NCBI GenBank assembly: GCA_964512095.1
Contig: CAZEIH010000017.1
Coordinates: forward strand, 267-64,266
Reading direction: 5' to 3'
Source: an uncultured Oscillospiraceae bacterium
Lineage (GTDB): Bacteria; Bacillota; Clostridia; Acetivibrionales; DTU013
DNA length: 64,000 nucleotides
In this document: piece by piece, positions 4,672 to 61,691 of the stretch
How the letters are laid out: the number at the start of each line of letters is the position of its first letter
How positions within the stretch are numbered: position 1 is the stretch's first letter
Program-made: the position numbers and the translations under genes
Notes under the pieces: generated by a model
Seen by the model: only the letters and a program-made list of their open reading frames with translations
Database searches by the model: none
What the model was told of the DNA's origin: nothing

Positions 4672-5226
4672 CTAATCCATAATGCCAAACCTGCTAAATG
4701 GAAAAACTCTGAATATAGCCCGGCCAGTTATCCATTCCTCCTCAATTGGGCCAAACTCCGTACTGTCATGACTGTAGGGCCTGTTGTCGCCAAGAATATA
4801 GACCATGCCCTCTGGCACTGTAAGGTCTGTATGTTCGCTTATAAGCCCCTGGGGTGTTTCCGGCTCCTCAGGCAAGCCAATCAATGAAAGCTCTCCATTT
4901 ACATAAACCTTGCCCTCCTTGACCTCCAGCCTATCACCCTCAACTGCAATAAGTCTCTTAATAAGGAGTATATCAGCATCAGGCGACTTAAAAACTATAA
5001 TATCACCTCTATTTAGCCAACCAAAGCGGCATCCCAGCTTCTCCACAAACAAATTGTCTCCATCTGTCAACGTGGGCTCCATAGATATATCATGCACAAC
5101 GGTTCTCTGAACCACAAAAGTAGCAATTAGCACCCCCACAACAACTGCAACTAAAATATGAAGAAACCAATCCAGCACTTCGTTCTTCTTTTTCTTATTT
5201 TCCTGCTTCGTAACACTCTCCTCCAA
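4672..5226 (-). CDS. lepB: signal peptidase I
   Basis: N-terminal TM helix, Ser box SMEPTL, Lys box IKRLIAVEGD and box E GDNRPYSHDS. Confidence 0.85.
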   Translation of the reverse strand: MEESVTKQENKKKKNEVLDWFLHILVAVVVGVLIATFVVQRTVVHDISMEPTLTDGDNLFVEKLGCRFGWLNRGDIIVFKSPDADILLIKRLIAVEGDRLEVKEGKVYVNGELSLIGLPEEPETPQGLISEHTDLTVPEGMVYILGDNRPYSHDSTEFGPIEEEWITGRAIFRVFPFSRFGIMD

Positions 5227-5292
5227 TCCCTCGAACCCCAGGGACCACCAAGCTAGCCTCTTCCACCAGGCTTTGCTTGTCCCATACTTCGC

Positions 5293-7071
5293 TTACTCAA
5301 CCACCTTCAGGTGTAGCTCCTTCAGCTGTTTCTCATCTACAACATCCGGCGCATTAGTCATCAGGTCCGAAGCATTTTGGACCTTCGGGAAGGCAATAAC
5401 ATCCTTAATGCTACTTTTGCCGGCCATTAGCATTATCATCCTGTCCAGGCCATAGGCAATGCCACCATGAGGCGGCACACCATACTTAAATGCCTCCAGC
5501 AGGTAGCCAAACTTAGCCCAGGCTTCTTCCTCAGTAAAGCCCAGCAGCTTGAACATTTTAGTCTGCAGGTCCTGCATATGAATCCTGATGCTGCCTCCAC
5601 CAAGCTCTGTGCCATTAAGTACGATATCGTAAGCCTTTGCACGAACCCTAGCTGGGTCACTTTCTAAATACTCCATATCCTCATCTATAGGTGAGGTAAA
5701 TGGATGGTGCTTTGCAACCCAGCGCTCTTCTTCCTCATCATACTCAAGCAGTGGAAATTCGGTAACCCACAGAAATTTAAAATCTTTGTTATCTAAAATG
5801 TCAATTCTTTTAGCAATCTCGACTCTCAGCGCTCCAAGTGAATCCAAGACCACCTGGTCTTTGTCTGCAATAAAGCATATCAAGTCTCCTGGTTCAGCAC
5901 CAGTCCTGTCAAGTAGAGCTTTCATTTCGTCCTCATTGAAAAACTTTGCTATAGATGATCTTACCTCATTCTCCTCCACAACAATCCAGGCCATACCCTT
6001 AGCCCTGTATGTTTTTACGTATTCCACCAGACTATCGATTTCCTTACGGCTGAACTTGCCACAGCCCTTGGCATTGATGGCACGCACACTGCCGCCCTTT
6101 ACCACTGCATCTGCAAACACCTTGAAGCCTGACTGTGCAACCAAGTCAGAAACATTCACCAACTCCATGCCAAATCGCATATCCGGCTTATCTGAACCGA
6201 ACCTGTCCATTGCCTCCCGATAGGGCATTCTAAGAAAAGGAGTCTCCAGGTCTACACCCAGTGCTTCCTTAAAGGCCTTCTTAATAAAACCCTCATTCAG
6301 AGTAATAATATCATCTACATTAACAAATGACATCTCAAGGTCAATCTGCGTAAACTCAGGCTGCCTGTCAGCTCTTAAATCTTCATCTCTAAAACATTTA
6401 ACAATCTGTATGTATCTATCAAAGCCCGATACCATAAGCAGCTGCTTGAATAGCTGAGGTGATTGAGGCAAGGCGTAAAATTTCCCCGGATGAACCCTGC
6501 TGGGCACAAGATAGTCTCTTGCCCCTTCCGGTGAGCTTTTAATCAGCATCGGTGTCTCTATTTCTAAAAATCCATGCTCATCAAAATAGTCCCTTGCAAT
6601 CTTAGCCACTCTATGTCGCAGCATCAAACCTTCCTGTATATCAGGTCTTCTAAGATCAAGATACCTGTACTTGAGCTTCATCGCTTCATTAACCCCAGAA
6701 TCTGCTTCTATATGCATCGGTGGTGTCTCTGAGCTGCTCAGGATCCTTAGCTCCAACGCATTAACCTCTATTTCACCTGTTTTCATAGTTGAATTAATAG
6801 CTTCAGAAGCCCTTGGCGCAACCTCGCCTACAACAGCGAGTACATACTCGTTTCTAATGCTTTCAGCCTTATCAAAAACATCCTTATCCGTAAGATTGCT
6901 AAAAACTATCTGAAGTAAACCTGTTCGGTCCCTTAAATCCACAAAAATCAAGCTTCCAAGGTTCCTGCGTTTTTGAACCCATCCCATGACTGTTACCTTT
7001 TTCCCTATATCAGCTGCACTGAGCTCAGTACACCTATGAGTTCTCTTTAAACCGTAAATTGTCTCTCCCAT
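5293..7071 (-). CDS. aspS: aspartate--tRNA ligase
   Basis: 592 aa. Class II motifs FRDEDLRADRQPEFTQID, GGGSIRIH and PPHGGIAYGLDR, with an N-terminal OB anticodon-binding region. Confidence 0.95.
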   Translation of the reverse strand: MGETIYGLKRTHRCTELSAADIGKKVTVMGWVQKRRNLGSLIFVDLRDRTGLLQIVFSNLTDKDVFDKAESIRNEYVLAVVGEVAPRASEAINSTMKTGEIEVNALELRILSSSETPPMHIEADSGVNEAMKLKYRYLDLRRPDIQEGLMLRHRVAKIARDYFDEHGFLEIETPMLIKSSPEGARDYLVPSRVHPGKFYALPQSPQLFKQLLMVSGFDRYIQIVKCFRDEDLRADRQPEFTQIDLEMSFVNVDDIITLNEGFIKKAFKEALGVDLETPFLRMPYREAMDRFGSDKPDMRFGMELVNVSDLVAQSGFKVFADAVVKGGSVRAINAKGCGKFSRKEIDSLVEYVKTYRAKGMAWIVVEENEVRSSIAKFFNEDEMKALLDRTGAEPGDLICFIADKDQVVLDSLGALRVEIAKRIDILDNKDFKFLWVTEFPLLEYDEEEERWVAKHHPFTSPIDEDMEYLESDPARVRAKAYDIVLNGTELGGGSIRIHMQDLQTKMFKLLGFTEEEAWAKFGYLLEAFKYGVPPHGGIAYGLDRMIMLMAGKSSIKDVIAFPKVQNASDLMTNAPDVVDEKQLKELHLKVVE

Positions 7072-46284: not shown

Positions 46285-46923
46285 CTATACCAGCTGTATA
46301 GATTCCTTTGTACTTGATTTTAATCTGTAATGATACTCATTCATTTCTCGTCCCTCTTTTGTAATATAGGACTTGTTCAATTCAAAGTAGTTTTTAATAT
46401 AAAAAGCATTTACTGAATCATTATTGAGCTTATCTGTTTCAAGCTTTATATAACTGAATCCATTACCATCAACTGACTCTTTTAGTGCATTAATAAGCAA
46501 TGTGCCTATACCCTTGTTTTTTGTTTCGGGGAGCACACCGATAGAGGATAGCTCAATATATGCTTCATCCCTGCTACTATCTTTGGAATATGTAAATGCT
46601 CTTAATATCCTGAACATTACCCTCGGCTTTCTAAAAAATGCTAACACACTGTAAAATGCAAAGGGAAAAAGACTTCTCCTAATTAGGTACCTATAAAAAC
46701 CGCTAATGTCCCTTGAATAGGCCAAAAAGCCTACAAGTCTGCCCTTGTCAAATGCACCTATTACATTTGATTCCTTATGGCTTATATATCCTTTATATAA
46801 ATGCTTTAAAAATCCCCTGCCTAAAAAAGTGAGAAAAAAGCCAGGAAATGTTCTTATATGAATGTCAACAATATCATCTACATATTGGTTTGAGCCTAAA
46901 GCTTCAATTTTCACTACTAACAC
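46285..46923 (-). CDS. GNAT-family N-acetyltransferase
   Basis: Acetyl-CoA motif region PETKNKGIGTLLINAL. 212 aa. Confidence 0.75.
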   Translation of the reverse strand: MLVVKIEALGSNQYVDDIVDIHIRTFPGFFLTFLGRGFLKHLYKGYISHKESNVIGAFDKGRLVGFLAYSRDISGFYRYLIRRSLFPFAFYSVLAFFRKPRVMFRILRAFTYSKDSSRDEAYIELSSIGVLPETKNKGIGTLLINALKESVDGNGFSYIKLETDKLNNDSVNAFYIKNYFELNKSYITKEGREMNEYHYRLKSSTKESIQLV

Positions 46924-47818
46924 TCCTGGTTTTTACTACATCTGTATCTGCATCTGCATCCTTTTTAACTAGTGCATAAACTGTTCTAAGCATAGTCTTG
47001 ATATTACCCATAAATGAAAACCTCTCAATATCACCTAAATTGAACTTCATCTTATCTGGCAACACCAGATTCATATAAACCACATCAACATCAGCAGCAG
47101 CAGTAGCAGTAGCAGTAGCAGCAGCAGTAGCAGTAGCAGTAGCAGTAGCAGTAGTAGTAGCAGTAGCAGCAGCACCAGTAGCATCGCCAGTAGCATCACC
47201 AGTAGCACCAGTAGCACCAGTATCATCAACCTCATAAACCCCATCAAGATTATCAGCTACTTTGAGTATACTTTCCTCATCCTTGTACTCGATACTTGCA
47301 TTTGAGGTAACACCGGCTGGCAGCAGCAGAGTTGCCAGCATTTCATCGGTATACAGCTCTACATATTTGACAACCTCCGGGCGAGTACCTACAAAGCTCA
47401 TATCGCCTTTAATTATATTCAAAAGCTGGGGTATTTCGTCGAGACGATATTTTCTTAAGCTCCTGCCGATTCGGGTAATTCTCACATCGTCACTCCTTGT
47501 GACTTGTGAACCAATTTTCTCAGCATTTTTAACCATTGTTCTAAATTTGAATATAGTAAAATGTCTTCCATATTGGGTTACTCTTGTCTGCTTGAATAGT
47601 ACAGAGCCTTTAGAGTCCAACCTTATGATTATACTTAGTATTAAAAACACCGGCGACAGAAGTATCAGGAAAATAGCAGAGGTGACTATGTCAAATAACC
47701 TCTTAACGAATAAGCTTAGCTTTTTCTTTTCCAATATGTCATAGTACCTTCTGACCTCAGTATTCTTCATGAATTCAGGCAACTTATCCCATTGTCGTAG
47801 CATCACCTTTATCTGCAC
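46904..47818 (-). CDS. PglC/WbaP-C-type monotopic phosphoglycosyl (priming) transferase
   Basis: Bac_transf motifs: a re-entrant helix, FKFRTM and DEIPQLLNIIKGDMSFVGTRP. Carries a ~45-aa (Gly/Asp/Ala/Thr)n insertion. Confidence 0.85.
   Translation of the reverse strand: MQIKVMLRQWDKLPEFMKNTEVRRYYDILEKKKLSLFVKRLFDIVTSAIFLILLSPVFLILSIIIRLDSKGSVLFKQTRVTQYGRHFTIFKFRTMVKNAEKIGSQVTRSDDVRITRIGRSLRKYRLDEIPQLLNIIKGDMSFVGTRPEVVKYVELYTDEMLATLLLPAGVTSNASIEYKDEESILKVADNLDGVYEVDDTGATGATGDATGDATGAAATATTTATATATATAAATATATAAADVDVVYMNLVLPDKMKFNLGDIERFSFMGNIKTMLRTVYALVKKDADADTDVVKTRSVSSEN
47092..47222 (-). repeat. GCT/ACT tri/hexanucleotide coding repeat
   Basis: Minus strand (GCTACT)n, (GCT)n and GGTGMTACT units encode TGATGATGDATGDATGAAATATTTATATATATAAATATATAAA. 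Confidence 0.9.
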
Positions 47819-49272: not shown

Positions 49273-49526
49273 AAGTCATCGAAATTTGTATGCATAAGTT
49301 CATCTTGATTGGTTAATTATTGCCTCTTATGTCATTTTAATGATTATGGGGTTATTTGTCAATATGCTATTTGCATAACAATTGGTTCAAAATTATTATG
49401 AAGTTTAGTATTTAAGCAGTGACATAGATAAATTTTTTTATGAATGTGCAATAATAGGTATTCCTTTTGTTGGCAATATGTATTACAATATGTATGTGTA
49501 CAAATTTTGTAAACAGGAGTGGTAAA

Positions 49527-52010
49527 ATGTTTATTTATAAGAAATTATCCTTTATTTTAATTGCTGCATTGATTTTTTCTATATTAATCCCATTTCCTGC
49601 AACAGCAAAAGAGGCTGTAGATGTAACTGAAAAAATTCAGCTTTTAGGGAAGCCTGCTCAATCTCAGCCCTATGCTAGAAATATTTGGGACATGCAGGTC
49701 TTCAAGGGGAAGCTATACGTCTGCTGTGGCAACAGCAGCAATAATGCTCCCGCATCTAACGCAGGGCCAATTGATGTTCTTAGCTATGATTCCGTTAAAG
49801 GCATTAGTAAGGTTTATACAGTCAACGAAGAGCAGGTTGATATCTTCAGAGTCATCAACGAAGTTCTATACATTCCCGGACATGATTCAAAGGATTCCTG
49901 GGATTTTGGCAATTACTACATCTTAAGCGATAGCTGGAAGAAGGTTAGGACAATTCCACAGGGCGTCCATGTCTATGATATGGCTGGCTACAATGGAAAG
50001 CTATACGCTGCTACCGGCACCAATGGCTACAGTGAGGTGGTAGTCTCTAGCGATAACGGCCTTACCTGGAATAAAGCAGCCCCTGAGGATGGAACCATCT
50101 TTCACACCACAGGCTACAGAGCCTATACCATGTTTGAATTTAAAGATGTTTTGTATGCATCCAGCAAGTTTATGGGAGTATCAAGCAATTGCAATAACAT
50201 GCTAAAAATAACCAAAGAAGGTATTACTTCTATTAATGTAGAAGGTCTAAAAATGATGCCGGGGTTGCCATCGTCTACCATGTATGCCAGCTGTAAACTT
50301 ATCAGACCTGTTGAGTTCAAGGATAACTTGTTGTACATAGGCGCTGAGATACACAATGATCATCAATATATACCACTCGCTTTGTATGCTTCCAGCAATA
50401 TTGGAGATGCCAGGATAATAACCCTTCCTGAAAGCACTGCTCTGCCCTATGATATTATTACACGCGATTCCCTTATATACGTTCTCGCCAGTGTTAAAGT
50501 CTCTGACAGCTCTTTTAAAAACTTAGTGTATAAGAGCACTGATTTAAATACCTGGGAGCAGGTGCTTAGCTTTAACAGTAGTGCCTTTGCCCGATCCTTT
50601 GAAGAAATAAATGGTGATTTCTTCTTTGGACTTGGCTGTGACACGGCTTATATGCCTGAATCATCGGGTAATATATTGAAGGTAAGTAAGTCCGCATATG
50701 CACCTACTCAAGTAGTGCAAGCTGTGACCAAGCAGGAGCAGGAGCCTGCGCTTAAAACTCAGTCAGAAGCCAACTCTGGGACGAAGACGGAGGCTAAATC
50801 GGAAACCAAGACTAAATCTGAAACCACATCGGCAGCTAAGTCGGAAACCAAGGCAGAGACCAAATCTGAGACCACATCAGTAGCTAAGTCGGAGGCGAAG
50901 TCCGAGACTAAATCAGAAACCATGGCAGAGACCAAATCAGAAACCAAGGCCGAGACTAAATCTGAGGCCACATCGGTAGCTAAGTCAGAGGCGAAGTCCG
51001 ATACTAAATCAGAAACCATGGCTGAGACCAAATCAGAAACCAAGGCCGAGACTAAATCTGAGGCCACATCTGTTGCTAAGTCAGAGGCGAAGTCCGATAC
51101 TAAATCAGAGACCACATTGGTAGCTAAGTCGGAGGCGAAGTCCGATACTAAATCTATTGAAGAAACCGCGACGATTGGCACCACAGAAAACAATACGCAA
51201 GCTAATAACCCTACCTCATCAAAATCCTCGACTGAGGTCAGTAGAAGCAGCAGGCAGTCATTTGCTAACTCTTCTTCAATAAATGTAAGCAGCAAGCTTA
51301 TGTCAACCGGCATTCAGCTAACTAAGCCCATTACCGCCAATACATCAGAACTCCAGATATTCGGTAGTACCTTGTATCTTTTACAAGAAAACACCTCTGA
51401 GCCAAGTATCATTGGTATAGATCTTGCCAAAGGCGCATTGATTAGTAATGCTGCAGCTGATTCCACCTATAAAAAGAACCAATTAGCGAATAATAAATCT
51501 CATACAACCAAAGAAAATATGGAGTCCTTAAAATTAGCAGTTACGAACATGTTACCTGTTTTGTCGGTCTATAACTCTATAGACATATTCAAAGCTATAA
51601 AAACTGAAGGCTATGAAATATATATTCCAGCTAAGAAAACAATTAGAAAACGGGTCGCCTCCATCGGTTTATACGTTACATCCTTAGGAGGCTCTTCAGG
51701 AGACTCTTCAGGAGGTTCTTCACGCCGCATTAACTTCAACAGCTCTGATGCAAAGCCCTGTGACATAATTATCCGAGATTCCGATGTCTATGTGTTGGCA
51801 GTGGAGGAATACGAAGACAATACCTTCAGAAGCATTGTTTGTCAAAGTAGAGATTTAGTTAACTGGACAGAGCTATTTGTTTTTACCAATGAAGCACCTG
51901 CAGTATCATTTGAGGAACACAATGGTGATTTCTACTTCGTACTTAACTGCGATGAAAAAAATAAATCTGCGTCAAATAAACTAATGAAGGTTAGTAGAAA
52001 TGATTATTAA
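49527..52010 (+). CDS. secreted repeat protein with Asp-box (BNR-like) motifs
   Basis: AGGAG lies 7 nt before ATG 49527. Signal peptide MFIYKKLSFILIAALIFSILIPFPATA. One Asp-box SSDNGLTW, a central (KSETKAE…) repeat block, and a C-terminal ~85 aa that duplicates residues about 330-415. Confidence 0.7.
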   Translation: MFIYKKLSFILIAALIFSILIPFPATAKEAVDVTEKIQLLGKPAQSQPYARNIWDMQVFKGKLYVCCGNSSNNAPASNAGPIDVLSYDSVKGISKVYTVNEEQVDIFRVINEVLYIPGHDSKDSWDFGNYYILSDSWKKVRTIPQGVHVYDMAGYNGKLYAATGTNGYSEVVVSSDNGLTWNKAAPEDGTIFHTTGYRAYTMFEFKDVLYASSKFMGVSSNCNNMLKITKEGITSINVEGLKMMPGLPSSTMYASCKLIRPVEFKDNLLYIGAEIHNDHQYIPLALYASSNIGDARIITLPESTALPYDIITRDSLIYVLASVKVSDSSFKNLVYKSTDLNTWEQVLSFNSSAFARSFEEINGDFFFGLGCDTAYMPESSGNILKVSKSAYAPTQVVQAVTKQEQEPALKTQSEANSGTKTEAKSETKTKSETTSAAKSETKAETKSETTSVAKSEAKSETKSETMAETKSETKAETKSEATSVAKSEAKSDTKSETMAETKSETKAETKSEATSVAKSEAKSDTKSETTLVAKSEAKSDTKSIEETATIGTTENNTQANNPTSSKSSTEVSRSSRQSFANSSSINVSSKLMSTGIQLTKPITANTSELQIFGSTLYLLQENTSEPSIIGIDLAKGALISNAAADSTYKKNQLANNKSHTTKENMESLKLAVTNMLPVLSVYNSIDIFKAIKTEGYEIYIPAKKTIRKRVASIGLYVTSLGGSSGDSSGGSSRRINFNSSDAKPCDIIIRDSDVYVLAVEEYEDNTFRSIVCQSRDLVNWTELFVFTNEAPAVSFEEHNGDFYFVLNCDEKNKSASNKLMKVSRNDY
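50760..51155 (+). repeat. tandem coding repeat, 90-nt period (Lys/Ser/Glu/Thr/Ala-rich)
   Basis: The 30-aa unit SVAKSEAKS(E/D)TKSETMAETKSETKAETKSEAT is repeated nearly identically, with shorter 6-8-aa sub-repeats on both sides. Confidence 0.9.
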
Positions 52011-52465
52011 AATAAACGCCTAAGGCGGTAATACATCCTCATCACCATCTTTCTGACAGGTATAATTAGAAGCCATAATCCTACTAAACATCTTAAAAGC
52101 ATATTATTGCAATCAATAATATGCTTTCCCCTTCTTATCCTGGAAACAGTAGCAATCAACTGGTGAGATACAAGAGGCCCTTCTACCCACTGCTGCGCGT
52201 CACCTATTATATAAAAGCTACTCTCTTCCTTTTTCATTACTCTGTGCATTACATATTCGCCTGTCAATCGTTTAATTAGAACGATATCTCCCCTTTTCAC
52301 AGAATCGTAGGAATTGCTTGCAAGCTCTACACTGTCCTTACCTTCACGTAGAAATGGATACATACTCATCCCGGTTACCGTTATCCAGGCCTTTTCACCA
52401 TTATTCAGTATCTCAGCGACCAAACTAAACAGTTCTGCCGCCTTCACCTTTACAAGCTCATGCAT
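52007..52465 (-). CDS. S24/S26-type serine peptidase-like protein, C-terminal TM
   Basis: TGMSMYPFL (GxSMxP Ser box), GDIVLIKR (Lys box) and the hydrophobic tail LLRCLVGLWLLIIPV. Overlaps the upstream gene by 16 nt. Confidence 0.65.
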   Translation of the reverse strand: MHELVKVKAAELFSLVAEILNNGEKAWITVTGMSMYPFLREGKDSVELASNSYDSVKRGDIVLIKRLTGEYVMHRVMKKEESSFYIIGDAQQWVEGPLVSHQLIATVSRIRRGKHIIDCNNMLLRCLVGLWLLIIPVRKMVMRMYYRLRRLF

Positions 52466-53346
52466 TTATACACCAACTCCACAGCTTCATAGTCAGGGCG
52501 GCATTGTAGCAGATAAACGGGAACTGTTTCTACCAGCTTTTCAATGACCTTAATAGTTGCCTCCATTAATCCTCCATCAAAGTATGGGAGAAAGCACCGA
52601 GGCATCAACATTTCCAGCGCTCTGGCCATATCGAGTCTTTCAATCCTATTCTCAGATGACCGGGTCAGCATCACAACACCCTCCAATGGTACCTTCAAAT
52701 TAGCAAATATATCTGTTGAACCACTCCAGGGCGTACCACACAGCATCGGCTTGCCCTCAAGGAAACGAATAACCGGTCTATCGTCATTCAAAAGTGTAAC
52801 TCTGTCTCCGTACCTTTCCTTCCACAGCCCTGTATGTGTTGACTTGCCTGTACCTGAAGGAGCAGATACAATAACACCCTTACCGTCTATTGCAAATGAG
52901 GAGGAATGTACAGTAATGCTATCCATACTAATCATTGCGTTTCTGTATGCTATACCTGTGAGCTGAAATGTGTGGTAATCATTCCATTTGACACGTCTAT
53001 TATCACTTATGGGATAAGTCAAATCAGACTCTATGTATCTAATGGATATATTCCTCCAAAAATAATCTGCTTCAAGAATGGTGTCAAACTCCAGATTTCT
53101 TGTACTTGTCATAGCTATGAAAAAACCGTTGTCAGGAGCTTTTTTTCTATACCATCTTGATGTTTCATCAAGTATCAGATCACCATCAGGAATAACAATG
53201 TTATCCACCTTTTCCGATTTAACAATCAAATCGACAGCTGAAGCCGACGTATCCGATGCTTCCATTTTGAATATGGCTCCTCTTTCTTCAAACAGATCGT
53301 TGGATCCTATAAATTCGACAATAATACCAGCAATGTTGTAAAGCAA
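52450..53346 (-). CDS. HPr-kinase-C-terminal-domain-like P-loop protein
   Basis: VHSSSFAIDGKGVIVSAPSGTGKSTHTGLW resembles the HprK C-domain motif (H-A-S…G…G-x-S-G-x-GKS). TTG start at 53346, 9 nt after AGGAG. Confidence 0.65.
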   Translation of the reverse strand: MLYNIAGIIVEFIGSNDLFEERGAIFKMEASDTSASAVDLIVKSEKVDNIVIPDGDLILDETSRWYRKKAPDNGFFIAMTSTRNLEFDTILEADYFWRNISIRYIESDLTYPISDNRRVKWNDYHTFQLTGIAYRNAMISMDSITVHSSSFAIDGKGVIVSAPSGTGKSTHTGLWKERYGDRVTLLNDDRPVIRFLEGKPMLCGTPWSGSTDIFANLKVPLEGVVMLTRSSENRIERLDMARALEMLMPRCFLPYFDGGLMEATIKVIEKLVETVPVYLLQCRPDYEAVELVYKCMSL

Positions 53347-53524: not shown

Positions 53525-53528
53525 GGGC

Positions 53529-53560
53529 AAAATAAAAGGGATTGTACAATTAACAACCCC
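53529..53560 (-). terminator. rho-independent terminator directly after the second precursor gene
   Basis: Minus RNA reads GGGGUUGU-UAAUUGU-ACAAUCCC-UUUUAUUUU. The G·U pair would be an A·C mismatch on the plus strand, so the orientation is minus. Confidence 0.7.
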
Positions 53561-53581
53561 CCATTAAAGACATACATAATA

Positions 53582-53710
53582 TTAGGAATTCAAACCTACC
53601 CAGGTATTATACTCTGCAGAGCAAGCCCCATCATAGTATGTACATGTACAAACTCTCTCATCTGCGCGTAGTTCTACACAGTTTATTTCGGGAGCAACAT
53701 ATTTTTTCAT
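53582..53710 (-). CDS. putative RiPP precursor peptide A2 (42 aa)
   Basis: Not in the ORF track. AGAGGTG lies 7 nt before the ATG. Sequence: MKKYVAPEINCVELRADERVCTCTYYDGACSAEYNTWVGLNS. Confidence 0.75.
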   Translation of the reverse strand: MKKYVAPEINCVELRADERVCTCTYYDGACSAEYNTWVGLNS

Positions 53711-53746
53711 TGTTTTTCACCTCTTTCCTCTTCAAGTTTGTATTTC

Positions 53747-53893
53747 TCACGAATCGCTAAGGGCTATAAGACCAACCATTGTGGGAATGTTTTGAACCTC
53801 CCATGTAGTACAACTTCCTGTGCAATTGCTGGCTATACGCTCCTCAACTCTTAGCTCTACACATGATAGTGTAGGTGTAACATATGCTTTCAT
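53747..53893 (-). CDS. putative RiPP precursor peptide A1 (48 aa)
   Basis: Not in the ORF track. AGGAGGG lies 7 nt before the ATG, 30 nt after the rSAM stop. Sequence: MKAYVTPTLSCVELRVEERIASNCTGSCTTWEVQNIPTMVGLIALSDS. Confidence 0.75.
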   Translation of the reverse strand: MKAYVTPTLSCVELRVEERIASNCTGSCTTWEVQNIPTMVGLIALSDS

Positions 53894-53923
53894 CTGGAAC
53901 CCTCCTTTCCATAATTTTTAAAA

Positions 53924-55051
53924 TCAATATTCTACATCCAGCTCCTTGCGGGCTTTTGCAGTCTCGCAAAGATATGGGGCTGGTTTAGTGAAGCTGCCTG
54001 TTTCAACCTTCAGTCTTGCAGGACAAGCCATGCATTTTGAGCGAAGGTCGCAATTATCACATTCCTTGCAGGAAGGTACATCCAGGCAGGATTTCTTTAG
54101 CAGTTCCCAAGATTTCGAAAATCCAAGACTCTTTACGTCGAACCAGGGATCTGTCAATAAGCCGCAAGGCGTCAATCTGCCATCCCAGGTCAACCAAAAG
54201 GCACCCTTCCCCGCCGTACATCTAAAGGCGGACGAAGCAGTCATATGCGGTATCTCTCCCACTAACTCATTAAGCTGGCCATCTGTCATAACATCATTAT
54301 TTACTGATAGCTCAGCCCTCTTCCTTGTTTCTTCCCGGTCCATGAGCTTTAATCTGAAGTCCTGAATCATTTTCTCATACCTTGCCAGCTCCAGAGGACC
54401 AAGCCTGCAGTTTTCAGGATCAGTGCCACAGCCCTCTCTCCTTGGCGCAACATAGTTGACTATGCCCAGTTGCCCTCCAAGACTGTCTGCTAAAGAATAT
54501 ATCTCCTCAAATTCACTACTATTTTCATCTATAACAGTGGTCTTTAGCTCTACCTTAATATTCTCAGCTAATAGCAGCTTTATTGCATTTACCGTATTGT
54601 GGAAGCCCTCCGGGTGTCCTGTGACTCTACCATAGGTCTCTGGACTTGCCCCATAAAGTGTAATGCTCACCTTTGATGGTGGCCTCTTCCCCAATCTGTG
54701 TGCCTTTTCAGCGTCTATGAGACCTCCGTTAGTATAGAGGGTAATACTCATTCCCATTTCTGAAAGAGCCTCGTATATCTCAAAGAAGTCCTTTCTCATG
54801 AATATCTCTCCACCGGTTAATGTCATAAAAATGAGCCCTGCATCTCTGGCCTGCCTTCCCAATGAAATCCACTGTGATGCTGTCAGCTCGTTTTCAAGGA
54901 ATGCTTTATCATCTGGCACACTGCATACGTAGCACATTTTGCAATGAAAGCTACATCTGGCTGTCAATTCAAAAAAACCTGATGCAGGATTCCCTACAAT
55001 AATTGACCTGTCAATTAAATTTTTGTATAATTGAGCCCATGACATACTCAT
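53924..55051 (-). CDS. radical SAM / SPASM-domain peptide-modifying enzyme
   Basis: CSFHCKMC (CxxxCxxC) near the N-terminus. The Cys-rich C-terminus is FRCTAGKGAF…TPCGLL…CLDVPSCKECDNCDLRSKCMACPA…YLCE. Overlaps the PqqD-like gene by 4 nt. Confidence 0.85.
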   Translation of the reverse strand: MSMSWAQLYKNLIDRSIIVGNPASGFFELTARCSFHCKMCYVCSVPDDKAFLENELTASQWISLGRQARDAGLIFMTLTGGEIFMRKDFFEIYEALSEMGMSITLYTNGGLIDAEKAHRLGKRPPSKVSITLYGASPETYGRVTGHPEGFHNTVNAIKLLLAENIKVELKTTVIDENSSEFEEIYSLADSLGGQLGIVNYVAPRREGCGTDPENCRLGPLELARYEKMIQDFRLKLMDREETRKRAELSVNNDVMTDGQLNELVGEIPHMTASSAFRCTAGKGAFWLTWDGRLTPCGLLTDPWFDVKSLGFSKSWELLKKSCLDVPSCKECDNCDLRSKCMACPARLKVETGSFTKPAPYLCETAKARKELDVEY

Positions 55052-55335
55052 TGTTGGTCCCCGCCATCTGCTGTTTCCAGTAGATTTTTCTGATGCAGTG
55101 TATCTAAAAACCTGATAACATCATTTTTTGCAGTTGCCTCGTCGATATCATATTCTTCAAGCAAAGCTGATACTAATTGCTGAGTGTTGGCATCACTTTC
55201 CATCAGGCGCCATAAAATCGCACCACTTTCACTTAGCGTCATTATTCCGTTGAATTCTACAACTCTTGCCCCCAATGGAACAACTACCCATTGCTTGGCA
55301 ATCTCCCGTAACATGAAACCGCTTTTGACCTTCAT
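55048..55335 (-). CDS. PqqD-family protein (RiPP recognition element)
   Basis: 95 aa. FMLREIAKQWVVVPLG…FNGIMTLSESGAILWRLM…LVSALLEEYDID…AKNDVIRFLDTL matches the PqqD-like winged-helix pattern. Confidence 0.8.
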   Translation of the reverse strand: MKVKSGFMLREIAKQWVVVPLGARVVEFNGIMTLSESGAILWRLMESDANTQQLVSALLEEYDIDEATAKNDVIRFLDTLHQKNLLETADGGDQQ

Positions 55336-55557: not shown

Positions 55558-57255
55558 TTAGACAGTCAGTAATTTTCTATTCTCCCTTTCCGGTTCTAAA
55601 AACCCCTCCCTAAGTCTGAATACTTTACTACAGCTATTTAGGGCAGTCATTCTGTGAGTAATCATTATACAGGTTCGAGCATGGCCTATTCCCTGTATAC
55701 TTTGTAATACCTTCTCTTCCAGCTCTATATCAAGGGCTGAGGTAGCCTCGTCAAGTATTATAATCGGCGCCTTCCTAAGATAGGCCCTGGCTATTGCTAT
55801 TCTCTGGGCCTGGCCTTCAGAAAGCCCGTATGCTTTTTCTCCAATAACAGTGTTAATTCCATCTGGAAGCTTTTCGACAAATTCCAGCGCACAGGCTGCT
55901 TTTAATGCTTCCTTCATTTCACTCTCACTTGCCTCCTGCTCTCCTGTGCGCAGATTGTCAGCTATTGTTCCACTTAATAATGTATTTCCTTGAGGAACAT
56001 ACGAGAACCAGCTTCTTGTGGCACATGTAATTTCACTTTTTTCGTCCCTTTCATTGAAACAGTAGATACTTCCAGCATCAGGCTTTAAAAGAGCAAGCAT
56101 GAGGCGTATTATCGTTGTTTTACCTTCGCCGGAGCTTCCTATTATGGCTACTATTTCACCTGGCAACGCCTCCATTGAAATATTATTCAGTACAATTTCA
56201 TCATCTTCATAGCTAAAGCTGACATTTTCAAATTTAATCCCTACCGAGCCAGGAGTCTCCAGTAGCTCATCAGTTACCTCTGTATTCAGCCTCTCAAGCT
56301 CTATCAACCTGCCTGCAGATGCCAGTGCTGCAATAATCTGAGGCAGCATCCTTGAAAGACCCATAAAGGGAGCCTGAACCTGATTGACAAGCTGCAGGAA
56401 GGCGGTCATTGTACCGTAAGTCGCTGTCCCCCTGGCTACCTTCACTATACCCCAGCCAAAGGCTGACCCATAGCCAAGCCAGTATCCAATAGACATTATG
56501 GTGCTAGCCATTACTCCGGCTTTGCTTCGCTTTGTCACCAGCTCTAGCTTTTCCTTTTGCAGCTCTCCAATTTTCTTCTTGCTATTTTCTTCAAGATTAA
56601 AGGTCTTAATAACCAGAAGGTTCTGCAGGTATTCCTGCATTTGAGACCGGTAAGTACTTTCGGTTTCCTGTATCTGTATGTGCATTTTGCCAAGTCTTCT
56701 GCCATAAAATCTGCTCACAAGTATCGTAAATGGCGCAAGTACAAATGCAAGTATCGCTAAGCTCTTGTCATAAACCATAAGTGTCACAAATGCCGCCGTT
56801 AGCTGTACTCCTAAGGAAATGATCTGTGGCAGTACGCTAATTGAACCGTTTGTAACAGAATTAATGTCGCTTGTCAAACGGGTCAGAAGATCACCACTGT
56901 GATATCTTGAGACCTGGGCCCACTCAATGTTTATCAGCTTTGCAAAAATACCCTGCCGCATATCATTGGAGTACCTTTCATGAACTCTTGCTGTATACAC
57001 TGTAAGAAATGCACGGGAAATTTGCATAAATAAAATCACACTCACAAATAAAGCGATGTTAGGTCCAGCACTTTTTAATCCATCATAAATAGCACTGTCT
57101 ACGAGATTTTTTGACGCTACCGCCATTAAAACTGAGGCAATAGCAGCCAAAGATTCCACAGCTATTATGAGAATAAGGGCTCCCAGGTATGGCCTTATGC
57201 TTGCAGCTAACCATCTGATATTGGATAAACTCTTTATTACTTTCTTAATGTTCAT
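55558..57255 (-). CDS. ABC exporter, fused permease/ATPase (no C39 peptidase domain)
   Basis: 565 aa with 6 TM helices, Walker A GSSGEGKTT, signature LSEGQAQR and Walker B IIILDEATS. Confidence 0.9.
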   Translation of the reverse strand: MNIKKVIKSLSNIRWLAASIRPYLGALILIIAVESLAAIASVLMAVASKNLVDSAIYDGLKSAGPNIALFVSVILFMQISRAFLTVYTARVHERYSNDMRQGIFAKLINIEWAQVSRYHSGDLLTRLTSDINSVTNGSISVLPQIISLGVQLTAAFVTLMVYDKSLAILAFVLAPFTILVSRFYGRRLGKMHIQIQETESTYRSQMQEYLQNLLVIKTFNLEENSKKKIGELQKEKLELVTKRSKAGVMASTIMSIGYWLGYGSAFGWGIVKVARGTATYGTMTAFLQLVNQVQAPFMGLSRMLPQIIAALASAGRLIELERLNTEVTDELLETPGSVGIKFENVSFSYEDDEIVLNNISMEALPGEIVAIIGSSGEGKTTIIRLMLALLKPDAGSIYCFNERDEKSEITCATRSWFSYVPQGNTLLSGTIADNLRTGEQEASESEMKEALKAACALEFVEKLPDGINTVIGEKAYGLSEGQAQRIAIARAYLRKAPIIILDEATSALDIELEEKVLQSIQGIGHARTCIMITHRMTALNSCSKVFRLREGFLEPERENRKLLTV

Positions 57256-59732: not shown

Positions 59733-60257
59733 CTATATTGGTTTCAGGATAGAAATCCCTAGATCTACTGTCCTTTCTTCTCCAAGGAAATCCAGCCGTA
59801 TCTTAGCTCTTTCTTTGCGATGGTCTATACTAATAATTACCCCTTCAAGGGAAAAGAGAGGACCGTCTACCACTTGAACTCTCCCATTCTCTATCAGCAC
59901 ATTCGAAAAACCAATTTCTTCGTTATTAGAAATCAAGCTGGACAATACAGCCATTTCTCGGCGGTCTATACTTGCCACTGAATTTCCTGTCTTTAGTAAT
60001 CTAATTACATTTGGTATGTTCTTTAAACCATAATACGTATCTGGAGTTATATCACCATTAATTAAAACATAGCCGGGAAACAAGACCCTTGTTTCTACCC
60101 TCCATATGCCGCCCTTCCTGACCCGCAGCTTTCTTTTGGGTACCACTACGGTATAGTCATCACCCAATCTATACCTGACTCTCTCCTTTGCCCTCTCCTC
60201 TTCACCTGTAACAACAAACACACCATGCCATTCATCTAATCGTGAATCATACAACAT
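59733..60257 (-). CDS. loaP: NusG-paralogue transcription antiterminator (LoaP-like)
   Basis: 174 aa. NGN-like N-terminus (WHGVFVVTGEEERAKERV…LFPGYVLI) and a KOW-like C-terminus (VQVVDGPLFSLEGVIISIDHRKERAKIRL). It is the first gene of a polysaccharide locus. Confidence 0.7.
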   Translation of the reverse strand: MLYDSRLDEWHGVFVVTGEEERAKERVRYRLGDDYTVVVPKRKLRVRKGGIWRVETRVLFPGYVLINGDITPDTYYGLKNIPNVIRLLKTGNSVASIDRREMAVLSSLISNNEEIGFSNVLIENGRVQVVDGPLFSLEGVIISIDHRKERAKIRLDFLGEERTVDLGISILKPI

Positions 60258-60410: not shown

Positions 60411-60645
60411 GGGAGACGGTTCGGTTCGGGGACGGTTCTCACCTTTGGAGACGGTTCCCACCTTTGGGGACAGTTCGTTCGGGGCCAGTTCGTTCGGGGC
60501 CAGTTCGTTCGGGGACAGTTCTCACCTTTGGGACAGTTCGGTTCGGGGACGGTTCTCACCTTTGGGACGGTTCGGCTCGGGGACGGTTCGTTCGGGGACA
60601 GTTCTCACCTTTGGGGACAGTTCGTTCGGGGACGATTCTCACTTT
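60411..60645. repeat. tandem array of 14 units of two types (15 nt and 19 nt)
   Basis: 8 units are GGGGAC(A/G)GTTCGTTC-like and 6 are GGGGAC(A/G)GTTCTCACCTTT-like, and the two types are interleaved. The last unit overlaps the stop codon of the AI-2E transporter gene. Confidence 0.9.
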
Positions 60646-61691
60646 GCGATTGCCTCAACTGTTTTATTAATCAACACCCTGATTATAGCCATTACAGGTA
60701 CGGCTAGGAGCATACCTGTGATTCCAAAAAACTCTCCGCCCACAAGGACTGCAAATATTGTGGCAACAGGATGAAGTCCCATCCGTCCTTCTATCATTTT
60801 GGGTGAAATAAAACTGTTATCGATTTGCTGCACAGTAAGAAAAACCACGATGGTCCAAACCGCCTTCATTGGCGATATTGTTAGGGCAACAGCAACAGCA
60901 GGTATTGCTCCAATGTATGGACCAAAGTAAGGAATCACATTGGCCAATCCACCGAGCATACCAAGAACTAGAGGATATCGCATACCAACTATAATAAGTC
61001 CGATAGTTTCCAGTATACCTATAATAAATGAAATAACCAGCTGCCCCTGAATAAATCCGGCAAGAATCCTGTTAATCTCCTTGAATACAAAAGTTAGGCC
61101 ATTCCTCCAGTGTCTTGGGAACAACAGTAAAGTATACTCTTTAAACCTTTCCCCATCTTTTATAGTGTAATATGTAATAACTAGCGCAATAGTTATGTCT
61201 ACAATGATTTTCACCATATCAACAACAAGGTTTAGACCATCCTCCAGCAGTCTAACAAGAAATGACTGCAACTTGTCCATAACATTTGTTATCTGATCAA
61301 ATATAGCATCTTTAACCTGCTCTGACCAGTTAGTAGAATCGATAGTAGAGAGTAGACCATTTAATGTGTTTTCATAGCTTAACATAAGCTGTGGTAACGT
61401 TTCCATCAGTTCTCGGATGTTTGTAGCCAGTTCAGGAATCAGGTATATACCCACAGCCACCAACAGCGCCAATATAAACAAGTAAACAACCAATATAGAT
61501 ATACCCACCGGTATCCTTTTGGCAATCAGCCTGTCTGACAAAGGCTTTACTATGTATACCAGCATTACCGTGACAAAAAACGGTGATAGGACTCTTACTA
61601 TTTTACCCCAATATGTATATATGAAAAAAACTGATGCTGTTATCATCAAAATCAAGATAAGGTAGAATAATAGCTTCTTATATCGTGCCAC
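60639..61691 (-). CDS. AI-2E family transporter (PerM/UPF0118)
   Basis: 350 aa with about 8 TM helices and GGLANVIPYFGPYIGAIPA. GTG start lies 6 nt after AGGAGG. Confidence 0.8.
   Translation of the reverse strand: MARYKKLLFYLILILMITASVFFIYTYWGKIVRVLSPFFVTVMLVYIVKPLSDRLIAKRIPVGISILVVYLFILALLVAVGIYLIPELATNIRELMETLPQLMLSYENTLNGLLSTIDSTNWSEQVKDAIFDQITNVMDKLQSFLVRLLEDGLNLVVDMVKIIVDITIALVITYYTIKDGERFKEYTLLLFPRHWRNGLTFVFKEINRILAGFIQGQLVISFIIGILETIGLIIVGMRYPLVLGMLGGLANVIPYFGPYIGAIPAVAVALTISPMKAVWTIVVFLTVQQIDNSFISPKMIEGRMGLHPVATIFAVLVGGEFFGITGMLLAVPVMAIIRVLINKTVEAIAK

Follow-up and report, generated by a model that had tools for sequence, protein, structure and literature searches.

The 64,000-nucleotide stretch analysed here (the window; contig CAZEIH010000017.1 of GenBank assembly GCA_964512095.1, positions 267 to 64,266, from an uncultured Oscillospiraceae bacterium) carries on its minus strand two small tandem genes, A1 and A2. 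We propose that A1 and A2 encode paralogous precursors of a single pathway for peptides that are synthesized ribosomally and modified post-translationally (RiPPs), composed of a RiPP recognition element (RRE), a radical S-adenosylmethionine (rSAM) enzyme, a kinase, a peptidase and an exporter. We assign this reading a probability of about 0.8, with the chemical steps inferred; that the two are genuine RiPP precursors in the first place is held with high confidence, and the specific chemistry with moderate to low confidence. Along the minus strand the cassette reads MsbA-like exporter, PqqD-type RRE, rSAM/SPASM enzyme, A1, A2, HprK-like kinase of the ScmC family and SipW-like peptidase, which places A1 and A2 between the rSAM gene and the kinase gene. 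A previous description of this DNA (the sequence-only reading) had presented the pair as RiPP precursors in tandem beside PqqD-like and rSAM genes, their leader conserved and their Cys-containing cores diverging. The comparative data agree with that description and add to it the HprK-like kinase, the SipW-like peptidase, a near-invariant C-terminal Ser and a capsule-locus setting, all of which it had omitted.

A1 (53747..53893, minus strand) encodes 48 amino acids, MKAYVTPTLSCVELRVEERIASNCTGSCTTWEVQNIPTMVGLIALSDS, and A2 (53582..53710, minus strand) encodes 42, MKKYVAPEINCVELRADERVCTCTYYDGACSAEYNTWVGLNS. Re-reading of the strand matched exactly the coordinates and translations given for these ORFs (open reading frames) by the sequence-only reading, as well as its claim of a good ribosome-binding site (RBS) 7 nt before each of them. 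These Shine-Dalgarno sequences are GGAGG upstream of the A1 ATG (53901..53905, minus strand) and GAGGTG upstream of the A2 ATG (53718..53723, minus strand). The leader comprises approximately residues 1-21 of A1, MKAYVTPTLSCVELRVEERIA, and reads MKKYVAPEINCVELRADERV in A2. Over residues 1-20, 12/20 positions are identical and three more are conservative (L/I, E/D and I/V); these are the values of the sequence-only reading, and both a count by hand and an alignment returned them again. Both leaders match the RRE-binding motif YxxPxΦ, as Y4-V-T-P7-T-L9 in A1 and Y4-V-A-P7-E-I9 in A2. The core of A1 contains C24-T-G-S-C28 and its last residue is Ser, while A2 has a three-Cys core (C-T-C-x5-G-A-C), a Trp and a C-terminal GLNS. 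The tails had been said to keep Cys, Trp and VGL. Trp and VGL are indeed present in both tails of the window, but VGL is not family-wide and was dropped as a family feature, the A1-type orthologs carrying ALTSS or ALNGGS at that place. The two genes had also been called unannotated; public gene callers already predict the two, labelled 'hypothetical protein', on 7-8 contigs from metagenomes of anaerobic digesters, so that this term holds at most for the record that the earlier description had imagined.

A word-indexed homolog search with a profile of A1 and A2 returned A1 and A2 alone, and homologs were therefore approached through the cassette enzymes. The rSAM enzyme has more than 355 homologs at E<=1e-20 and the ScmC-family kinase more than 1,100, and a genome scan yielded 80 related loci. 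Most of the 80 loci combine a PqqD gene, an rSAM gene and a ScmC-like gene in variable order, and most of the long ones also contain an S24 peptidase and an ATP-binding cassette (ABC) exporter. The cassette, with one to three precursors sharing the leader, was found in dozens of Clostridia genomes. An exhaustive HMMER search with the A1 and A2 profile against 1.84 billion representative proteins gave 38 matches at E<1e-3, 36 of them other peptides of 41-70 amino acids with the A1/A2 leader. Three peptides found in this way were traced to their contigs, and all three lie in a PqqD-rSAM-precursor-precursor-ScmC-S24 arrangement. At loci L010-L027, small ORFs with the same leader immediately adjoin the rSAM gene, as read from a regular-expression scan and then from a hidden Markov model (HMM) of the leader. 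Among 20,223 six-frame segments from the related loci and the window, the leader HMM gave 58 matches, all on the cassette strand. Its sole matches in the 64-kb window were A1 and A2, a result that is partly circular because both were among the seeds.

Two intact ORFs directly follow the rSAM gene in all eight relatives checked (L090-L096 and L027). An A1-type and an A2-type ortholog could both be read in five of these (L027 and L090-L093), each with an RBS, and with a hairpin after the second. The sites are GGAGG or AGGAGG, and AGAGGTG is conserved before the A2 orthologs. The rSAM proteins of the five syntenic relatives are 57-67% identical to that of the window. A1-type orthologs follow the pattern ..EERIAxxCTGSCT...S. 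The A2-type pattern in the five syntenic genomes is ..[DE]ERVCxC...G[AE]C...W...S, with a GLNS-ending form, ERVCTC...GAC...W.GLNS. Across six syntenic genomes the ratio of nonsynonymous to synonymous change (pN/pS) in the leader was 0.23 for A1 and 0.26 for A2, with pS at approximately 0.7 and thus near saturation. The leader homologs for which the sequence-only reading had suggested a search were found as small ORFs of related genomes, adjoining PqqD/rSAM genes, and the frames, whose disruption in orthologous clusters would by its account have spoken against the two genes, are intact there. The presence of homologs, the intact frames and the PqqD/rSAM adjacency indicate that A1 and A2 are genuine precursor genes. 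A1, A2 and eight related precursors were assigned to no Pfam or NCBIfam family, and showed noise-level matches to DUF5972 (E 0.05-0.08) and to the StsA leader (E 0.029, for a Gly-rich relative). A search of PDB sequences with the A1/A2 profile returned nothing.

A terminator-like hairpin with a 10-bp stem is located 20 nt past the A2 stop codon (53562-53536, minus strand; 53526..53562 with its T-run included). Its predicted fold of -12.2 kcal/mol (z=-1.05) is weak taken alone. A hairpin and T-run are present at the equivalent site in 5/5 relatives, with differing stem sequences. The element is probably a terminator or attenuator, which would end or attenuate the precursor transcript on the 3' side of A2.

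Family statistics were compiled from 45 peptides. The leader consensus is M-K-K-Y-[VI]-x-P-x-[LI]-x-C-V-E-L-R-x-E-E-R-[ILV]-A, with Y4, P7 and E18 invariant and K2 and R15 present in 44/45. The cores are hypervariable, between paralogs as between orthologs. All 45 retain at least two Cys in the core, and no other core residue is equally conserved. The spacing C-x(1-7)-G-[SAC]-C occurs in 34/45, and in 30 of those 34 an Asp or Glu follows it at a distance of at most four residues. A C-terminal Ser is found in 42/45, mostly as GS or NS, against a background of 6-12% for small ORFs of the same loci. This terminal Ser did not select the peptides, because in the HMMER search the matched stretch mostly ended at profile position ~30-36.

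Other precursor types were observed at related loci. At L010-L018, approximately at positions 5100-5680 of each locus, a second type lies upstream of the PqqD gene. It has a similar leader, reading EEGIAC, and a Gly/His-rich tail with a Trp/Phe-rich end (for example ...GGRNGGWGWFFPW); this type is not in the window. Most of the L010-L018 loci have an extra radical SAM gene further upstream. Loci L029-L089 (Oscillospiraceae, Ruminococcus and others) represent a distant cassette clade in which the genes for precursors of 75-90 amino acids lie upstream of those for ScmC and rSAM. These precursors read MKKxYxKPxΦxFExFxLSANIAxGC...C...C...CYH.P....[LIV]F[TN]S; they conserve four Cys, nearly always end in Ser, and are covered by no Pfam or NCBIfam model. 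Loci L036, L053 and L073 (Pseudomonadota, delta-proteobacterial, Competibacter), from Gram-negative genomes, contain PqqD-rSAM pairs and short precursors with two-Cys cores and a related leader, ..YEPPKATxxPΦKΦE[ED]RL... A ScmC-like gene was not detected within the stretches of L036 and L053 examined. At L073 such a gene adjoins the rSAM gene, and the precursor ends in Ser.

The proteins encoded around A1 and A2 were analysed by domain models, PDB searches and structure prediction. The discrete PqqD-family RRE (55048..55335, minus strand; 95 amino acids) matches PF05402 with E=5.7e-18, and the stop codon of its gene overlaps the rSAM start by 4 nt. Its best NCBIfam match is the lasso PqqD-family chaperone NF033536 (E=5e-11, sub-threshold). 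Against the PDB it matched the lasso B1 proteins TbiB1 (1.9e-5) and 9x90_B (3.4e-5), and PqqD at 1e-3. The radical SAM/SPASM peptide maturase (53924..55051, minus strand; 375 amino acids; PF04055, E=3.5e-19) has the motif C33-x3-C37-x2-C40 and the SPASM cysteines C278-x12-G-x4-C296 ... C331-x2-C334-x5-C340-x2-C343 ... C362, and no RRE is fused to it. In 41 homologs, CxxxCxxC and the eight C-terminal SPASM Cys are invariant or at least 90% conserved; no match of the protein to the SPASM Pfam domain was seen among the four Pfam families listed. All of its NCBIfam matches were sub-threshold (AhbD, NirJ2, ScmE/F, PqqE, StsB and SkfB), and it scored far below the cut-offs of the thioether-maturase models StsB, SkfB and AlbA. 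The thioether synthase SkfB is its top PDB match in sequence as well as in fold. An AlphaFold2 model (predicted local distance difference test, pLDDT, 87.6) had SkfB, SuiB, PqqE and anSME as its top fold matches. SkfB forms thioethers, whereas SuiB and PqqE form C-C bonds. The predicted fold confirms the assignment to peptide-modifying SPASM/twitch-type enzymes, and it does not fix the chemistry.

Downstream of A2, the HprK-like P-loop kinase (52450..53346, minus strand; 298 amino acids) carries the precomputed Pfam assignment PF27840, ScmC, which is also given to all of its homologs. Across 41 homologs there is no variation in its Walker A motif S164-G-T-G-K-S-T, in H147 or in D189. NCBIfam gave weak matches to TIGR04249, TIGR04352 and HprK. 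The AlphaFold2 model of this protein (pLDDT 93.3) was matched by Foldseek to ATP-dependent phosphoenolpyruvate carboxykinase (PEPCK) over its full length, and to the HprK/P kinase domain. The gene for the SipW/archaeal-type signal peptidase I-like leader peptidase (52007..52465, minus strand; 152 amino acids; TIGR02228, E=6.9e-10; PF00717, 3e-5) overlaps the kinase gene by 16 nt. The peptidase contains GMS34MYP, H74RV and D89, and has a hydrophobic C-terminal tail. At the other end of the cassette, the MsbA-like ABC exporter (55558..57255, minus strand; 565 amino acids; TIGR02203, 3.6e-89; TIGR02204, 1.3e-83) has its permease and ATPase fused and is without a peptidase domain.

Much of this gene set recalls the linear polyphosphorylated peptides (LPPs) of Bacilli, which are encoded by lppA-K-B-S-D-N (Popov et al., Nat Commun 2026, PMC13381572). 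There the kinase LppK and an MsbA-like exporter act together with the signal peptidase I (SpI) LppS, which cleaves the leader in an RRE-dependent manner, and the clusters are situated in capsular-polysaccharide loci; LppK phosphorylates Ser3 of the LPP core (PMC13381572). The LPP leader is YxxPxVLxHQxIxFETxxS, the first part of which is the [Y/W]xxPx[L/V/I/F/A] motif bound by lasso-type RREs (PMC13381572). The LPP domain grouping comprises TIGR04249 (ScmC), TIGR04352, TIGR04355 and TIGR00679 for the kinase, TIGR02228 for the peptidase and TIGR02203/02204 for the exporter (PMC13381572, supplement). All the corresponding elements, a discrete RRE, a kinase that is HprK-like, an SpI peptidase and an MsbA-like exporter, are present in the window, with scores below the NCBIfam cut-offs, and the top models of the window proteins are the same (TIGR04249/04352, TIGR02228 and TIGR02203/04). 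The two systems also share the YxxPxΦ start of the leader, one to three precursors per cluster that are conserved at the N-terminus and vary at the C-terminus, and the placement in capsular-polysaccharide loci.

The cassette differs from LPP clusters in several respects. The rSAM/SPASM gene is a conserved and integral part of it, whereas the LPP paper and its supplements contain no radical SAM, SPASM or PF04055 entry; a linear product with phosphorylation as its primary modification, and with no other class-defining maturase, is characteristic of LPPs. NTP_transf_5 (LppN) was not found among the called genes around the window cassette. The second half of the leader reads CVELRxEER[IV]A, in contrast to VLxHQxIxFET of LPPs, and the position ten residues after P7 is E17, not Phe, so the LPP motif Px9Fx[T/A] is absent. 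Finally, the cores are short, contain Cys and end in Ser, and the hosts are Clostridia rather than Bacilli.

In the proposed pathway, the discrete PqqD-type RRE would bind the leader at Y4-L9 and hand the peptide to the rSAM/SPASM enzyme, as is familiar from this protein family. The rSAM enzyme would then cross-link the core through Cys-derived thioethers of the sactipeptide or ranthipeptide type at C-x(n)-G-x-C-x-x-[D/E]. Given that the peptides are its substrates, we lean moderately towards such thioether bridges as its product. Alternatively, the enzyme could introduce a modification of a different kind, for example a C-C or C-O cross-link, an epimerisation or a C-terminal change, with the core Cys forming a disulfide or binding metal; we consider this rather doubtful. 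The C-C bond formers SuiB and PqqE are found beside SkfB among the structural matches, none of the thioether-maturase NCBIfam models (StsB, SkfB, AlbA) was passed, and the C-x(n)-G-x-C spacing is missing in 11/45 family members, all of which would suit a different chemistry. On the other hand, the presence of at least two core Cys in 45/45 peptides is the most conserved feature of the core, the thioether synthase SkfB is the best PDB sequence match, and a Cys-rich core that comes with a SPASM enzyme is typically a substrate for thioether formation.

The ScmC-family kinase would phosphorylate a Ser of the precursor. HprK homologs in paeninodin-type lasso clusters do so on the linear precursor, at its C-terminal Ser and with little dependence on its other residues (PMC8498205); the alternative is a junction Ser or Thr, as in LPPs. 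The near-invariant C-terminal Ser is our candidate phosphosite, at odds only slightly better than even. Ser22 of A1 lies at the LPP Ser3-equivalent distance from the Tyr, and was ranked below the C-terminal Ser because this position is not conserved in the family. It is unlikely, in our estimate, that the ScmC-like protein is an ATP-dependent scaffold or another transferase and not a peptide Ser kinase, in which case the C-terminal Ser might serve exporter recognition, rSAM chemistry or attachment to a glycan or phosphoglycan of the adjacent capsule pathway. Such a role would fit the weak matches to TIGR04249, TIGR04352 and HprK with no PDB sequence match, the placement of the cassette in exopolysaccharide (EPS)/capsule loci, and the Ruminiclostridium/'OH' clade of metagenome-assembled genomes (L010-L028), which keeps the cassette and ScmC but has Ser-terminated candidates in 4/45. 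The P-loop and His/Asp set are, however, invariant in 41 homologs, PEPCK and the HprK/P kinase domain are its structural matches, and the experimentally proven LppK and paeninodin kinases, which share the TIGR04249/TIGR04352 models, phosphorylate precursor Ser.

For the last steps, the SipW-like peptidase would cut the leader near EER[IV]A-x-x with assistance from the RRE, by analogy with LppS, and the MsbA-like ABC transporter would export the product. The S34/H74/D89 pattern of the peptidase fits, by analogy, the LppS Ser/His/Asp triad S29/H68/D93.

Several observations weigh against the pathway as drawn. All of its chemical steps are inferred. The rSAM enzyme, kinase, peptidase and RRE score below every curated NCBIfam cut-off, which places none of the enzymes in a characterised equivalog family; at such a distance from characterised enzymes, the chemistry of the rSAM protein cannot be deduced by homology. 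A PDB sequence search with the kinase gave no match, and the ScmC-like protein is likened to LppK and PadeK through shared models, not through sequence comparison. LppK itself targets Ser3 of the core, not the C-terminus. The L010-L028 sister clade, with its 4/45, indicates that the C-terminal Ser rule is not universal for ScmC-linked cassettes. The hairpin after A2, with z=-1.05, is energetically unremarkable.

The cassette was also compared with other RiPP systems. With the paeninodin-type lasso clusters (PadeA/B1/B2/C/K) it shares a discrete B1-type RRE, a [Y/W]xxPxΦ leader and an HprK-homologous kinase. Neither a lasso cyclase (Asn-synthase-like C) nor a B2 transglutaminase-like cysteine protease is among the called genes of the window locus, where the rSAM enzyme would instead supply the class-defining chemistry and the leader peptidase is a signal-peptidase homolog. 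The SynChlorMet (SCM) cassette, which has a PqqD-like member, resembles it in combining a ScmC-family protein (PF27840), a PqqD-family protein and a SPASM rSAM enzyme, and 'SynChlorMet cassette protein ScmC' is the name that UniRef gives to proteins homologous to the window kinase. The window has one rSAM gene in place of ScmE and ScmF, and its scores lie well under the cut-offs for ScmC (TIGR04249; 18.3/125 bits), ScmE (77/400 bits) and ScmF (75/400 bits). We know of no precursor described for the SCM cassette. Sactipeptide and ranthipeptide systems (SkfA/SkfB, StsA/StsB and subtilosin AlbA) are similar in their SPASM/twitch rSAM enzymes, RRE-dependent recognition, Cys cores and tandem precursor genes adjoining the maturase. 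Their RREs are fused, whereas that of the window is discrete, and no sactipeptide or ranthipeptide maturase model was passed by the window enzyme. The kinase, the signal-peptidase-type leader peptidase and the near-invariant C-terminal Ser are peculiar to the window cassette in this comparison.

The system for pyrroloquinoline quinone (PQQ), PqqA/PqqD/PqqE, likewise consists of a small peptide, a PqqD-family chaperone and a SPASM rSAM enzyme, and the sequence-only reading had likened the A1/A2 leader to that of PqqA. This likeness was not borne out: A1 and A2 have no Pfam match to the PqqA family, with nothing better than E=0.08, the leader fits [Y/W]xxPx[L/V/I/F/A], and the RRE is nearest to lasso B1. 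The Pro-to-LR and LR-to-Glu spacings of PqqA presumably also differ from those of the A1/A2 leader. The general point made there, that a PqqD-like domain should recognise the leader, stands. The cores hold no conserved Glu/Tyr pair, unlike PqqA with its Glu-x3-Tyr, and that of A1 has no Tyr at all. A PqqA-like role, in which A1 and A2 would give rise to an intracellular redox cofactor similar to PQQ or mycofactocin and not to an exported peptide, is highly improbable. The PqqD-like and SPASM rSAM architecture, with PqqE and MftC among the sub-threshold matches, would be expected for such a system. The called genes of the window locus, however, include no PqqB, PqqC or PqqF, the cores are hypervariable, unlike those of cofactor precursors, the cassette has its own ABC exporter and a signal peptidase anchored in the membrane, and the RRE is closer to lasso B1 than to PqqD. 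The idea that A1 and A2 are chance, untranslated ORFs in an intergenic spacer, for which one could cite their shortness (42 and 48 amino acids), the want of a Pfam or NCBIfam model and a word-indexed search that found only themselves, is refuted by the comparative data: intact orthologs in five syntenic genomes despite near-saturated synonymous change (pN/pS ~0.25), 36 peptides from a blind profile search, 58/58 leader-HMM matches on the cassette strand, and an RBS 7 nt before each ORF.

These comparisons place the cassette outside the LPP, lasso, SCM, PQQ and named sactipeptide and ranthipeptide families, because a defining feature of each is missing. It clearly works like an LPP/paeninodin-type chassis of RRE, kinase, peptidase and exporter that has been joined to a SPASM rSAM maturase. 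The literature searched contained no paper describing this rSAM-containing cassette or its precursors; specifically, the cassette is not described in RRE-Finder, the structure-based RRE paper, the Rgg-centred mining preprint or the RaS-RiPP microbiome review. The result links three systems that have been treated separately, the lasso B1-type RREs, the LPP kinase/signal-peptidase module and the SPASM rSAM maturases. A single chassis of RRE, kinase, peptidase and exporter has seemingly been combined with a lasso cyclase, with an rSAM enzyme or with no class-defining enzyme. The cassette is widespread, and extends known RiPP logic rather than breaking it. The A1/A2 family offers substrates for a large set of enzymes, the ScmC and rSAM families, that have no described substrate in the literature searched. 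Concrete hypotheses that mass spectrometry could address follow from the C-x(n)-G-x-C core and from the near-invariant Ser at the C-terminus.

The cassette is surrounded by an EPS/capsule locus with genes for a CapD-like Polysacc_synt_2 protein, a NusG paralog, a DegT aminotransferase, a Bac_transf sugar transferase and glycosyltransferases. The NusG paralog and the CapD-like gene are found beside the cassette in the window and in L090-L093, in differing positions. At L095 (1-10156), an S24-like peptidase, an ABC exporter, PqqD, rSAM, two precursors and ScmC lie inside a capsule operon, between CpsB/CapC and the Wzz and CpsD-like (ParA/AAA_31) genes and downstream of a NusG paralog. This setting, which LPP clusters share, suggests that the role of the product may concern the cell envelope and not classical bacteriocin activity, and its recurrence is a hint of the biological role of the whole group. 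We would regard it as a long shot that these peptides constitute a new RiPP class of short, rSAM-cross-linked peptides with a (poly)phosphorylated C-terminal Ser and a function tied to capsule/EPS assembly. If they did, the phospho-Ser peptide could serve the polysaccharide machinery as an acceptor, primer or regulator, and not act as an antibiotic, and such a capsule-linked class would explain the repeated insertion of LPP, paeninodin and window-type clusters in capsule operons.

Other features were noted in the window. A tandem repeat at 60415-60646, with approximately 10 copies of ~15-17-nt units (GGGGACAGTTCGTTC-like) and nested periods of 34, 49, 83 and 117 nt, lies in the spacer between the NusG paralog (59733-60257, minus strand) and an AI-2E transporter gene (60639-61691, minus strand). 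The NusG paralog stands at the head of the EPS/RiPP region, and the array is upstream of it. Convergent with the cassette, an ORF of 847 amino acids (49467-52010, plus strand) has an N-terminal hydrophobic segment and a central part rich in Ser, Thr, Lys and Glu (KSETKAETKSE...), which tandem repeats of 48/96 bp at 50809-51155 encode. Without a Pfam match in the public calls, and varying from 795 to 838 amino acids among strains, it is probably a surface protein. The Bac_transf-type sugar transferase (46904-47818, minus strand) contains an unusual Ala/Thr/Gly low-complexity insert, GATGATGDATGDATGAAATATTTATATATATAAATATATAAA, near its C-terminal third, and is 304 amino acids long in the window as compared with 291 and 280 in the strain variants L001 and L002, respectively.

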